Below, piece after piece: positions 11,775 to 44,389 of a DNA stretch of 64,000 bases. Position 1 is the stretch's first letter. Each line of letters begins with the position of its first letter. The notes beneath the pieces are model-generated. The model was not told where the DNA came from, made no database searches, and was given only the letters and a program-made list of their open reading frames with translations. A program made the translations under genes and the position numbers. The DNA lies in the NCBI RefSeq assembly GCF_054482595.1, contig NZ_CM137008.1; one strand, 5' to 3'.

Positions 11775-13136
11775 TTACTGCTGATGTTTAAGGATAAATT
11801 GACCTTTCGGCGCAACAGGGAAGCCCTGTTCAATGTCGTAAATCACATCACCACGTAAGATGGTTTTCGTGATACGCGCGCCAATGGTACGGCCAACATA
11901 CGGGCTGACTTTGTGGCGATATTCCAGATCGTCATTGGTAAGAACATAGCTGCTATTCGGCTGAATGAAGACGAAGTCGGCATCTTTTCCTGGGGCGATA
12001 CGGCCTTTTTGCTGCAGACCGAAAATATCTGCTGCGTTAGTCGCCATTAATTTGCCGAACATTGGCAGAGACATTCCGCGTTTCTGTACCGCTTCATCGA
12101 ACATCACGTCCATACAGTTTTGCAGACCGGCAATACCGCCCCATGCTTCCATGATGTTGCCGGCTTTCATTTCCGGAGGGCATGGTGAGTGGTCGGAAAC
12201 CAGGCAGTCGATTTCACCGTTAAACAGTTTTTCCCACATGCCTTTCTGGTTTTCCAGATCGCGGATCGGCGGTGAACACTTCGCCAGAGTACCGATTTCT
12301 TCGAACTGATCGGTATCCAGTACAAAGTAATGCGGGCAGGATTCACAAGTAACGTCCTGACCTTCCTGACGTGCACGAGTCACTTCTTCAACGCCTTCCG
12401 GGCTGCTGATATGGCAAACGTGCAGACGGCAACCGGCAACTTTCGCCAGATACAGCACGCGGCGAATCGCTTCCACTTCGGTAAATACCGGACGCGAAGC
12501 CACATAGTCATGGGCAGTTACGCGACCTTCACGTTTCGCTTCTTCGCCCAGTGCGTCACAGATCAGCGCGTTTTCGCAGTGCACCAGCACCGGCTGCCCC
12601 AGTTCGCCCAGCTTCTGCGCACCTTTGAAGAACTGCCAGTCGTTTACATCACGGAAGTCGTTGTCGATACCGCGATCGCCACAGGTCGCAACGAAGCATT
12701 TGAAGCCGACAACGCCCACTTCATCCAGCTCATGCAGACGGTCGATGTTGTAAGACACCAGGCCACCGAGTTGTGCCGCATCGATAGTCAGCTTGCCTTT
12801 AGCGGCATCGAACTTCAGTTCAATTGAAGCGCGGTCAACCGTTGCAGGCAGCTGGTTGAGCGGCATTTCGATCATGGTGGTGATACCACCTTTTGCCGCT
12901 GCGCGAGTACCGGTTTCATAACCTTCCCAGTGGCTACGACCCGGTTCAGAAATATGGGTGTGCGCATCAACCATGCCCGGCGAAACCACCAGACCAGACG
13001 CATCCATAACTTCTTTTGCATCGCCCAGATCCTGACCGATAGCAGCAATTTTGCCGCCTTTAACGGCGATATCTACAACGCGAGCTTCGTTTTCTAAAAT
13101 AACGGTGCCGTTTTTAATGATTAAATCAAAAGACAT
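11775..13136 (-). CDS. allB: allantoinase
   Basis: 453-aa ORF; cyclic amidohydrolase HxH motif (DAHTH). Confidence 0.92.
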
Positions 13137-36686: not shown

Positions 36687-37094
36687 TCACCCTGCCCGAT
36701 GATGACAGCAGCCGGAGAGATTTTCGATAATCGGGCAGTCGGCGCTGTCATCGCCAGGGCAGGCATTCGCCAGTGCCAGCAGCTGGTCGCGCATGGATTG
36801 CAGCTCCTCAATGTGTCGTTCGATCTCCGCCACCTTCTCCAGCGTGCGCCGTTTGACGTCGGCGCTGTGCCGCTGCGGGTCGTTAAACAGATTCACCAGC
36901 TCGCCGCTCTCTTCCAGGTTAAAGCCCACCTGCCGTGCCTGGCGCAGTAAGGTCAGTTCGTTGAGATGCTGCTGCGTGTAGGTGCGATAACCGTTTTCGC
37001 TGCGCATCGGCGGCGTCACCAGCCCCTTCTCTTCATAGAAGCGAATGGCTTTGCTGGTCAGGCCGGTAATTTTTGCTACATCGCTGATGTTCAT
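36687..37094 (-). CDS. cueR: MerR-family Cu(I)-responsive regulator
   Basis: 135-aa ORF; MerR HTH N-terminus, C-terminal CxxxxxxxC metal site. Confidence 0.92.
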
Positions 37095-37218
37095 CGTTCG
37101 CGCAACGCCTCCTGTGCTTTGTTAAAGGGTTTCAACAGATATTCAAGCACGTTTTTTTGCCAGTGCGAATATCGACCGCCACCACAATAATACAGGAAGT
37201 ACTGCGCACAGAGAGATG

Positions 37219-39707: not shown

Positions 39708-42212
39708 ATGTCACAAATTATCGACCTGACCCTGGACGGCCTGTCCTGCGGTCACTGCGTTAAACGCGTGAAAGAAAGTCTCGAACAGCGCCCGGATGTG
39801 GAACAAGCGGATGTGTCTATCACTGAAGCGCACGTTACCGGGACTGCCAGTGCAGAACAGCTGATCGAAACCATCAAACAAGCGGGTTATGACGCATCTG
39901 TAAGCCACCCAAAGGCTAAACCGCTGGCGGAGTCATCAATCCCGTCGGAAGCACTGACAGCGGTTTCTGAGGCGCTTCCGGCAGCGACCGCCGATGACGA
40001 TGACAGCCAGCAGTTGCTGCTGAGCGGCATGAGCTGCGCCAGCTGTGTCACCCGCGTACAAAATGCGCTGCAAAGCGTACCGGGCGTCACTCAGGCACGG
40101 GTAAACCTGGCGGAGCGTACTGCGCTGGTGATGGGCAGTGCCTCCCCACAAGATTTAGTGCAGGCGGTGGAAAAAGCGGGCTACGGTGCGGAAGCGATTG
40201 AAGATGACGCTAAACGCCGCGAGCGCCAGCAAGAAACCGCCGTAGCTACGATGAAGCGCTTCCGCTGGCAGGCAATTGTTGCACTGGCTGTGGGTATCCC
40301 GGTAATGGTCTGGGGGATGATCGGCGATAACATGATGGTCACCGCTGACAACCGCAGCTTGTGGTTAGTTATCGGCCTGATAACCCTGGCAGTGATGGTT
40401 TTCGCCGGCGGCCATTTTTACCGCAGTGCATGGAAAAGCCTGCTGAACGGTGCAGCGACGATGGATACGCTGGTGGCGCTGGGAACGGGTGTGGCGTGGC
40501 TCTATTCGATGAGCGTCAACCTGTGGCCGCAGTGGTTCCCGATGGAAGCGCGGCATCTTTACTATGAAGCCAGTGCGATGATTATCGGTCTGATTAATCT
40601 CGGCCATATGCTGGAAGCGCGCGCACGTCAGCGTTCTTCTAAGGCGCTGGAGAAATTACTCGATTTAACCCCACCGACGGCGCGCCTGGTTACTGACGAA
40701 GGTGAAAAAAGCGTGCCTCTGGCGGAAGTGCAGCCAGGTATGTTGCTGCGCCTGACGACCGGCGATCGCGTGCCGGTAGATGGCGAGATTACCCAGGGCG
40801 AAGCATGGCTGGATGAAGCGATGCTGACGGGCGAACCAATCCCGCAGCAAAAAGGCGAAGGCGAAAGCGTCCATGCCGGGACAGTGGTACAGGACGGTAG
40901 CGTGCTGTTTCGTGCCAGTGCGGTTGGCAGCCATACCACGCTGTCACGGATCATTCGCATGGTGCGCCAGGCCCAGAGCAGCAAGCCAGAAATCGGTCAG
41001 CTGGCGGATAAAATCTCAGCCGTATTTGTACCTGTGGTGGTGGTGATTGCGCTGGTCAGTGCGGCAATCTGGTACTTCTTTGGTCCGGCACCGCAAATTG
41101 TTTATACCCTGGTGATTGCCACCACGGTACTGATTATCGCCTGTCCGTGTGCGCTGGGGCTGGCGACGCCGATGTCGATTATTTCCGGCGTCGGGCGGGC
41201 GGCTGAGTTTGGCGTGCTGGTGCGGGACGCCGACGCGCTGCAACGCGCCAGTACACTCGATACCGTCGTGTTCGATAAAACCGGGACGCTGACCGAAGGG
41301 AAGCCGCAGGTTGTCGCAGTGAAAACGTTTGCTGATGTTGATGAAGCGCAGGCATTGCGTCTGGCGGCGGCACTGGAGCAAGGTTCCAGCCATCCGCTGG
41401 CACGGGCGATCCTCGATAAAGCAGGTGATATGCAGCTGCCGCAGGTCAACGGTTTCCGCACATTGCGCGGGCTGGGCGTGAGCGGTGAAGCTGAAGGTCA
41501 TGCGTTATTGCTGGGCAATCAGGCGCTGTTAAATGAGCAACAGGTTGGTACCAAAGCTATCGAAGCGGAGATTACTGCTCAGGCATCGCAAGGAGCAACG
41601 CCTGTGCTGCTGGCGATTGACGGGAAAGCAGTAGCCCTGCTGGCTGTACGCGATCCGTTGCGTAGTGATAGCGTGGCGGCGCTGCAACGCCTGCATAAAG
41701 CGGGATATCGTCTGGTGATGTTGACCGGGGATAACCCAACCACCGCCAATGCGATCGCCAAAGAAGCCGGGATTGATGAGGTGATAGCCGGGGTGCTGCC
41801 GGACGGTAAAGCCGAAGCGATTAAACGCCTGCAAAGTGAAGGACGTCAGGTGGCAATGGTGGGCGACGGCATTAACGACGCGCCAGCGCTGGCTCAGGCG
41901 GATGTCGGCATTGCGATGGGTGGCGGCAGTGATGTTGCTATTGAAACCGCGGCGATTACCCTGATGCGCCATAGCCTGATGGGCGTTGCGGATGCGCTCG
42001 CTATTTCCCGCGCAACGCTGCGCAACATGAAGCAGAACCTGCTCGGCGCGTTTATCTACAACAGCATCGGTATTCCGGTTGCCGCCGGTATTTTGTGGCC
42101 GTTTACTGGAACACTGCTTAACCCGGTGGTTGCCGGAGCGGCAATGGCGCTCTCGTCGATTACCGTAGTGAGTAACGCCAACCGGTTGCTGCGGTTTAAA
42201 CCGAAGGAATAA
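39708..42212 (+). CDS. copA: Cu(I)-translocating P1B-type ATPase
   Basis: 834-aa ORF: two N-terminal CxxC domains (GLSCGHC, GMSCASC), [16 protein letters not shown]. Confidence 0.95.
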
Positions 42213-42269
42213 GTACGTCATTGCGGATGCGCTGCTTTAGGGCGGCGCATTTGGCATCGACGCATGACT

Positions 42270-43010
<741 letters not shown>

Positions 43011-43032
43011 GAGATGAAGCGATGTTTTGGCC

Positions 43033-43375
43033 TTACGCGACCTTTTTTGCACGCTCTTCACGGCGTGCCAAATATTCAGCCACTGTTTCAATCCGTCCCA
43101 ATTCTTCCTGGGTACGCATGTTGTTTTCAACTTCCCAAAGATCAACTGCCGCCTGGAGGTTTAGCCAAAAATCGACTGTGGTATCAAAAACTTTCGCCAG
43201 ACGGAATGCCATTTCAGTGGTGAGTTTACGATTATTATTGATCAGTGTACTGACGTTATTACGATGAACATGCAGCAACTCTGCTAACTCATTGATTTTC
43301 AAAGCGAGCGGTTCCAGATTATTCATAGAGAAGAATATCTCCGGGTGTCGTCGGTTTTCTTGTTGCCTGTTTCAT
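43033..43375 (-). pseudogene. ybaQ: HigA/Xre-like HTH regulator, apparently frameshifted
   Basis: 18-codon ORF from ATG 43375 (MKQATRKPTTPGDILLYE) stops at TAA 43321-43319, overlapping the 97-aa HTH ORF (43326-43033) in the +1 frame. Confidence 0.6.
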
Positions 43376-43512
43376 AGTTTTTAACTGTTGCTTCCCTGTG
43401 AATAGCGATACAAGAACATACTGAATCATACAAACACATTAAACAAGTCCCCAACTCCATTTGCGCCATTCCTCCCCGCGCGCTAGCATGATATTTCACA
43501 AAGGGAGGTCGT

Positions 43513-44307
43513 ATGGATCTGTTGTACCGGGTAAAAACGCTTTGGGCCGCGCTGCGCGGTAATCATTACTCCTGGCCTGCCATCGATATCACCCTCCCCG
43601 GCAATCGCCATTTTCATCTGATTGGCAGTATTCATATGGGTAGCCACGATATGGCTCCCCTGCCCGCCCGTTTGCTCAAAAAGCTCAAAAACGCCGATGC
43701 GCTGATCGTCGAGGCGGATGTTTCCACCAGCGATACGCCTTTTGCTAATTTGCCTGCCTGCGAGGCGCTGGAAGAGCGTATTAGCGAGGAGCAATTACAA
43801 AATCTGCAGCACATTAGCCAGGTGATGGGCATTTCTCCGTCACTCTTTTCTACCCAACCGCTGTGGCAAATCGCGATGGTTCTTCAGGCGACGCAGGCAC
43901 AAAAACTGGGGCTGCGGGCAGAATACGGTATCGATTACCAGTTATTGCAGGCGGCGAAGCAACAACATAAACCCGTGATTGAACTGGAAGGGGCTGAAAA
44001 CCAGATTGCCATGTTGCTCCAGCTCCCTGACAAAGGACTGGCGCTGCTGGACGATACGCTGACCCACTGGCATACCAACGCACGGTTGCTGCAACAAATG
44101 ATGAGCTGGTGGCTGAATGCGCCGCCGCAAAATAATGAAATAACGCTGCCCAATACGTTCAGTCAGTCGCTGTACGATGTGCTGATGCATCAGCGAAATC
44201 TCGCCTGGCGGGATAAATTACGCGCCATGCCGCCGGGGCGATATGTGGTCGCGGTCGGTGCACTACACCTGTATGGAGAAGGGAATTTGCCGCAAATGTT
44301 GCGCTAA
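43513..44307 (+). CDS. ybaP: TraB/GumN-family protein
   Basis: 264-aa ORF; synteny. Confidence 0.88.
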   Translation: MDLLYRVKTLWAALRGNHYSWPAIDITLPGNRHFHLIGSIHMGSHDMAPLPARLLKKLKNADALIVEADVSTSDTPFANLPACEALEERISEEQLQNLQHISQVMGISPSLFSTQPLWQIAMVLQATQAQKLGLRAEYGIDYQLLQAAKQQHKPVIELEGAENQIAMLLQLPDKGLALLDDTLTHWHTNARLLQQMMSWWLNAPPQNNEITLPNTFSQSLYDVLMHQRNLAWRDKLRAMPPGRYVVAVGALHLYGEGNLPQMLR

Positions 44308-44389
44308 AAAAATGGCCAATATCGCTATTGGCCCGTCAAAGAGGAATTTCATTTTTTTATTATTATGCCGTCACTTTAAGCGACGGTGT
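44306..44389 (-). ncRNA. chiX: ChiX (MicM/SroB) Hfq-dependent sRNA
   Basis: Minus strand reads ACACCGUCGCUUAAAGUGACGGCAUAAUAAUAAAAAAAUGAAAUUCCUCUUUGACGGGCCAAUAGCGAUAUUGGCCAUUUUUUU, 84 nt, matching remembered ChiX. Confidence 0.85.

Follow-up and report, generated by a model that had tools for sequence, protein, structure and literature searches.

The window analyzed here, a 64,000-nucleotide stretch of contig NZ_CM137008.1 (NCBI RefSeq assembly GCF_054482595.1), carries on its minus strand, at 43033-43375, a ybaQ pseudogene of the HigA-family antitoxin/DNA-binding regulator type that is interrupted by a +1 insertion. A minus-strand reading of 42900-43600, together with the open reading frame (ORF) listing, bore out all the coordinates given in a preliminary description, which had proposed that the gene is split into two pieces. 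The first piece (43319-43375, minus strand) opens at the native ATG (43375-43373) and runs for 18 sense codons, MKQATRKPTTPGDILLYE, to a premature TAA at 43321-43319. An in-frame ATG at 43429 offers this frame an alternative, longer start; the MKQ start is the one used by the K-12 and PGAP annotations. The second piece, a 97-aa ORF in the shifted frame (43033-43326, minus strand), begins at an internal ATG at 43326, reads MNNLEPLALKINELAELLHV...RAKKVA, and ends with a stop codon finishing at 43033; it consists of MNN followed by YbaQ residues 20-113 and contains the helix-turn-helix (HTH). The two ORFs overlap within the string ATGAATAA. A scan of 42950-43650 for promoter and terminator consensus sequences returned nothing above shuffle expectation.

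Several other features surround ybaQ. The copA gene occupies 39708-42212 on the plus strand, and the K-12 annotation adds to it a second product, a soluble Cu(I) chaperone, as a joined (frameshift) coding sequence at the copA 5' end. The spacer between copA and ybaQ is 820 bp long in the window, 316 bp in K-12, TUM18780, and A16, and 215 bp in PS10-3, and in SCU-316 it has received an IS1397-family element. In the window the spacer harbors, at 42269-43011, a 101-bp REP/BIME-type unit repeated 7.4 times in tandem with 97% identity among the repeats; this array gives seven minus-strand and three weaker plus-strand matches to the Rfam family RF02564 (naRNA4/CssrE) and yields many spurious ORFs of 50 to 76 aa on both strands. 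At the 3' end of ybaP, a minus-strand match to Rfam sroB (the ChiX small RNA; 82.1 bits) at 44306-44389 corresponds to a known feature, annotated likewise in K-12. Farther away, between cueR and ybaT (approximately 37091-37188), PGAP marks in the identical SM107 sequence a remnant described as [quoted passage not shown] which strain 2824 also has.

In order to define the lesion, we aligned the ybaQ region of the window with those of K-12 MG1655, O157:H7 TR01, SCU-316, and four window-like genomes. K-12 MG1655, O157:H7 TR01, and SCU-316 read GAATATCTGG, whereas the window reads GAATAATCTGG, which is exactly one extra A, as the preliminary description had suspected. The inserted base is one of the two in an AA dinucleotide at 43319-43320 (minus strand), where the multiple alignment and a pairwise alignment to strain 2824 both place the change; it turns codon 19 from TAT into TAAT. 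When the extra A was deleted in silico, the two pieces gave the 113-aa protein that had been expected of them, with an end-to-end match (residues 1-113, E=8e-69) to PDB 2EBY, the 113-aa "putative HTH-type transcriptional regulator YbaQ" of E. coli. The K-12 gene (b0483; PDB 2EBY), which comprises 342 nt (113 codons plus the stop), lies at the same ybaP-copA locus and is likewise an orphan without higB-1; the repaired protein of the window differs from it by three substitutions in 113 residues, and the window differs from K-12 in carrying the extra A. Full-length 113-aa YbaQ is not encoded in the window, as the frame is broken after codon 18. The closest intact allele is of the O157:H7 TR01 type, at a distance of the indel plus one single-nucleotide polymorphism (SNP) over a 381-bp alignment. 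Strain 2824, 99.7% identical over 24 kb, was considered as the nearest intact relative and set aside, its ybaQ being K-12-like with 11 substitutions.

The repaired protein belongs to the HigA antitoxin family by sequence match, scoring above the curated cutoffs of TIGR02607 (103.7 bits, cutoff 47.7, profile positions 2-80 of 81) and of Pfam HTH_3 (35.6 bits, cutoff 23, positions 1-55). Its PG(D/E)IL motif has an aligned counterpart in Coxiella VapI/HigA (3TRB), and its residues 6-79 align with residues 6-79 of PaHigA. At the locus in the window, no single reading frame encodes the whole HigA domain, the PG(D/E)IL segment and the HTH lying in different frames. We also modeled the repaired protein with single-sequence AlphaFold2. 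The model was one continuous helix from residue 11 to 112 (pTM 0.44), with pLDDT values of 54 to 61 for the other four models, and it was dropped because a lone helix is not credible given the solved structures of HTH-family relatives; the domain is judged here from its coverage of the family profiles and from the HigA structure in the literature.

To evaluate how widespread the lesion is, we searched complete E. coli genomes with a 66-bp query centered on the insertion. The query was matched at 100% identity in 17 of the 4,833 genomes that have ybaQ (0.35%), and the remaining 4,816 matched it at 98.5% identity with a single gap. The preliminary description had proposed comparison with reference ybaQ genes as a check that could refute an insertion; K-12 and 4,816 other genomes turned out to lack the extra A. 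With one base more than in 4,816 genomes, reproduced in 17, the ybaQ of the window is a frameshifted pseudogene in the PGAP sense. We inspected nine carriers (XH990, Santai O157:H16, YZMc3-1, PS10-3, SM107, TUM18780, A16, Tig207, and the twin sequence of the window), and PGAP annotates all nine as "ybaQ, HigA family addiction module antitoxin, frameshifted," which supports the earlier reading of a gene split by a single-base insertion. The insertion in the eight named RefSeq genes is identical to that of the window. For SM107, the PGAP pseudogene at 12034-12376, shifted by an offset of 30999, falls exactly on 43033-43375.

Single-base indels are the commonest type of error in assemblies, which would favor the view that the extra A is a sequencing or assembly error and that ybaQ is in truth intact, with TAT at the site. 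Against this, the identical insertion recurs on three flanking haplotypes in 17 complete assemblies, made independently in different laboratories from strains of different hosts and countries, and the site is an AA dinucleotide, with no long homopolymer. The number of assemblies, the several haplotypes, and the nonhomopolymeric site together indicate that the insertion is not an assembly artifact, and we regard such an error as highly improbable.

The carriers are not one clone at the ybaQ locus. Some, among them SM107, XH990, and Santai, are identical to the window over lengths of 481 bp to 24 kb, the SM107 group without any difference; SM107 and AHM21C2872I are 100% identical to the window over 24 kb. 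Carriers outside the SM107 group have shorter REP arrays and other flanking alleles. At least three flanking haplotypes are represented, with differing accessions for the YbaP and CopA proteins and with copA-ybaQ spacers of 820, 316, or 215 bp. Over the 1,400 bp upstream, 17 to 19 differences separate the groups formed by the window with XH990, Santai, and TUM18780, by A16, and by PS10-3 with Tig207; the window and K-12 differ at 21 positions over the same stretch, so that the carrier groups diverge as unrelated E. coli strains do. Within ybaQ itself, the window group and A16 are the same, and PS10-3 and Tig207 differ from them by 2 SNPs. The simplest reading is one origin followed by recombination; recurrent insertion is also possible. 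The carriers originate from several countries, with humans, poultry, pigs, and an otter as hosts. Of the 17, 16 have an intact 97-aa ORF. In YZMc3-1 (ybaQ at 2606-2947 of locus L003), a 1-bp deletion that shortens GGG to GG and a T-to-G substitution follow approximately 220 and 245 bp farther along the gene, which fits a decaying pseudogene or may be an error of that assembly.

We considered whether full-length YbaQ might still be made by recoding. A programmed +1 ribosomal frameshift of the prfB type at GAA-TAA would restore the 113-aa protein with a Y19N substitution: the sequence is such that a +1 shift at the ybaQ stop returns to the frame, and in prfB it is a stop codon in the A site that triggers the shift. 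Yet the site, CUC UAU GAA UAA U, offers no slippery P-site codon, as the tRNA-Glu on GAA cannot re-pair on AAU. The Shine-Dalgarno-like element of prfB stands 3 nt upstream of its site, whereas in ybaQ 14 nt separate a GGAG from the GAA codon downstream of it. The arrangement is, moreover, missing from 99.6% of ybaQ genes and thus is no conserved recoding signal. With slippery codon, spacing, and conservation among orthologues all failing, a prfB-type frameshift site is not supported, and we give recoding next to no credence.

A second route to a product would start at the internal ATG. According to this alternative, a truncated 97-aa YbaQ is translated from ATG 43326, either by means of a weak GGAG 12 nt upstream or by termination-reinitiation after the 18-codon leader, and keeps some DNA-binding or regulatory activity, so that the allele would be hypomorphic or altered and not null. 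The ORF is open and intact. The preliminary description had found no convincing ribosome-binding site for this start, which is a fair assessment, since the spacing of the GGAG (43339-43342, minus strand) exceeds the optimum of about 5 to 9 nt for a Shine-Dalgarno sequence; its duplex energy with the 16S rRNA 3' end, -6.6 kcal/mol compared with -5.1 kcal/mol for the best pairing upstream of the native start, nevertheless leaves some synthesis possible. The stop codon of the leader begins 5 nt past the internal ATG, within ATGAATAA, an arrangement that would permit termination-reinitiation. Bacterial ribosomes are known to reinitiate at start codons close to a stop, and Adhin and van Duin reportedly put forward a scanning model for this in 1990. 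On the other hand, premature termination usually lowers mRNA stability. Low-level synthesis of the 97-aa form is plausible on these sequence features.

As for the activity of such a product, the 97-aa ORF scores above the cutoffs of TIGR02607 (82.3 versus 47.7 bits, positions 15-80) and HTH_3 (32.9 bits, positions 8-55), but 13 to 14 positions at the start of the HigA profile and 7 at the start of HTH_3 are missing from it, and with them the conserved PG(D/E)IL motif. From general knowledge of the 434/Cro-type fold, we take the missing N-terminal positions to be helix alpha1. HigA-type antitoxins are compact five-helix bundles with a hydrophobic core, in which alpha2-alpha3 form the HTH and alpha4-alpha5 the dimer interface (PMC6987408). 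The truncated ORF keeps the HTH helices and the later helices, which mediate dimerization in PaHigA (PMC6987408). The loss of one helix from so compact a bundle should destabilize the fold. We therefore regard a functional 97-aa product as unlikely, and the same holds for the whole alternative of a truncated protein, made by either route, with retained activity. The specific version in which coupled translation through ATGAATAA keeps the allele from being null, by supplying a dimerizing YbaQ without helix 1 that binds DNA with altered affinity or specificity, seems to us quite improbable. If true, such coupled production could account for a downstream ORF that has remained open even as the allele came to be carried on at least three flanking haplotypes.

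The genomic context bears on what the loss of YbaQ would mean for the cell. The spacer between ybaP and ybaQ (43376-43512) is 137 bp long and of the K-12 type; alignment with K-12 and with the higB-1-bearing strain AR_0055 showed that higB-1 is missing, and this spacer, the stretch examined, has no toxin ORF that would make up a type II HigB-HigA module with ybaQ. In AR_0055, a 303-nt gene (positions 781-1083 of locus L010) encoding a 100-aa RelE/ParE-family toxin sits between ybaP and ybaQ. Matches of its product to the NCBIfam RelE and YoeB models are only weak (E-values between 1e-3 and 1e-2). Complete E. coli genomes show three states of the locus, namely, higB-1 with ybaQ (AR_0055 and similar strains), ybaQ alone (K-12-like strains), and neither; about 590 of 5,422 complete genomes have no ybaQ at all, for example, SCU-105 (locus L011).

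The three states agree with the work of Rousset et al. (bioRxiv 10.1101/2020.05.25.114553), who found ybaQ to be essential in 5 of 18 E. coli strains, belonging to phylogroups B2 and F and carrying higB-1 directly upstream. In that study, ybaQ was essential only where higB-1 was present, YbaQ being its HigA-type repressor/antitoxin, and higB-1 was strongly derepressed upon ybaQ knockdown. The toxin is gone from most phylogroups, phylogroup D has lost both genes, and in CFT073 the toxin is truncated by a stop codon, a case of reciprocal decay; most lineages without the toxin have kept ybaQ, which may also act in other ways (Rousset et al., bioRxiv 10.1101/2020.05.25.114553). The approximately 590 genomes without ybaQ are consistent with essentiality only beside higB-1. 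The window shares the antitoxin gene and its chromosomal site with the B2 and F pair but, unlike that pair, in which ybaQ is needed for viability, it lacks the toxin gene directly upstream. With no higB-1 between ybaP and ybaQ, the ybaQ of the window is an orphan, and its inactivation cannot release a linked toxin.

Altogether, we consider it very likely that the extra A is a genuine, inherited 1-bp insertion that defines a loss-of-function ybaQ pseudogene allele in a minority of E. coli lineages, tolerated where higB-1 is absent. The extra A in codon 19 shifts the frame and brings in the TAA after 18 codons, and 113-aa YbaQ can no longer be made. YbaQ is a HigA-type HTH repressor/antitoxin whose documented role is to repress higB-1, immediately upstream of it in phylogroups B2 and F. 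At this locus the toxin gene is absent and loss of the orphan ybaQ would not be lethal; a nonlethal loss may then have been kept and passed to several backgrounds. That higB-1 is missing from the locus, a context the preliminary description did not have, is probably the reason why the loss is tolerated, and we infer a functionally null allele whose persistence is due to relaxed selection. Its low frequency (0.35%) is more in keeping with a loss that is recent or mildly deleterious than with a favored one, and the loss may not be fully neutral.

The frameshift allele is already known, being annotated in RefSeq, and is an ordinary lineage polymorphism. Its importance lies mostly in annotation, as a further case of an orphan antitoxin decaying once its toxin partner is gone, and it agrees with what has been published on the higB-1/ybaQ locus, where the toxin has been lost, both genes have been lost, or the toxin has been truncated. 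The carriers are natural ybaQ mutants and could be used to ask whether YbaQ has a function besides the repression of higB-1.
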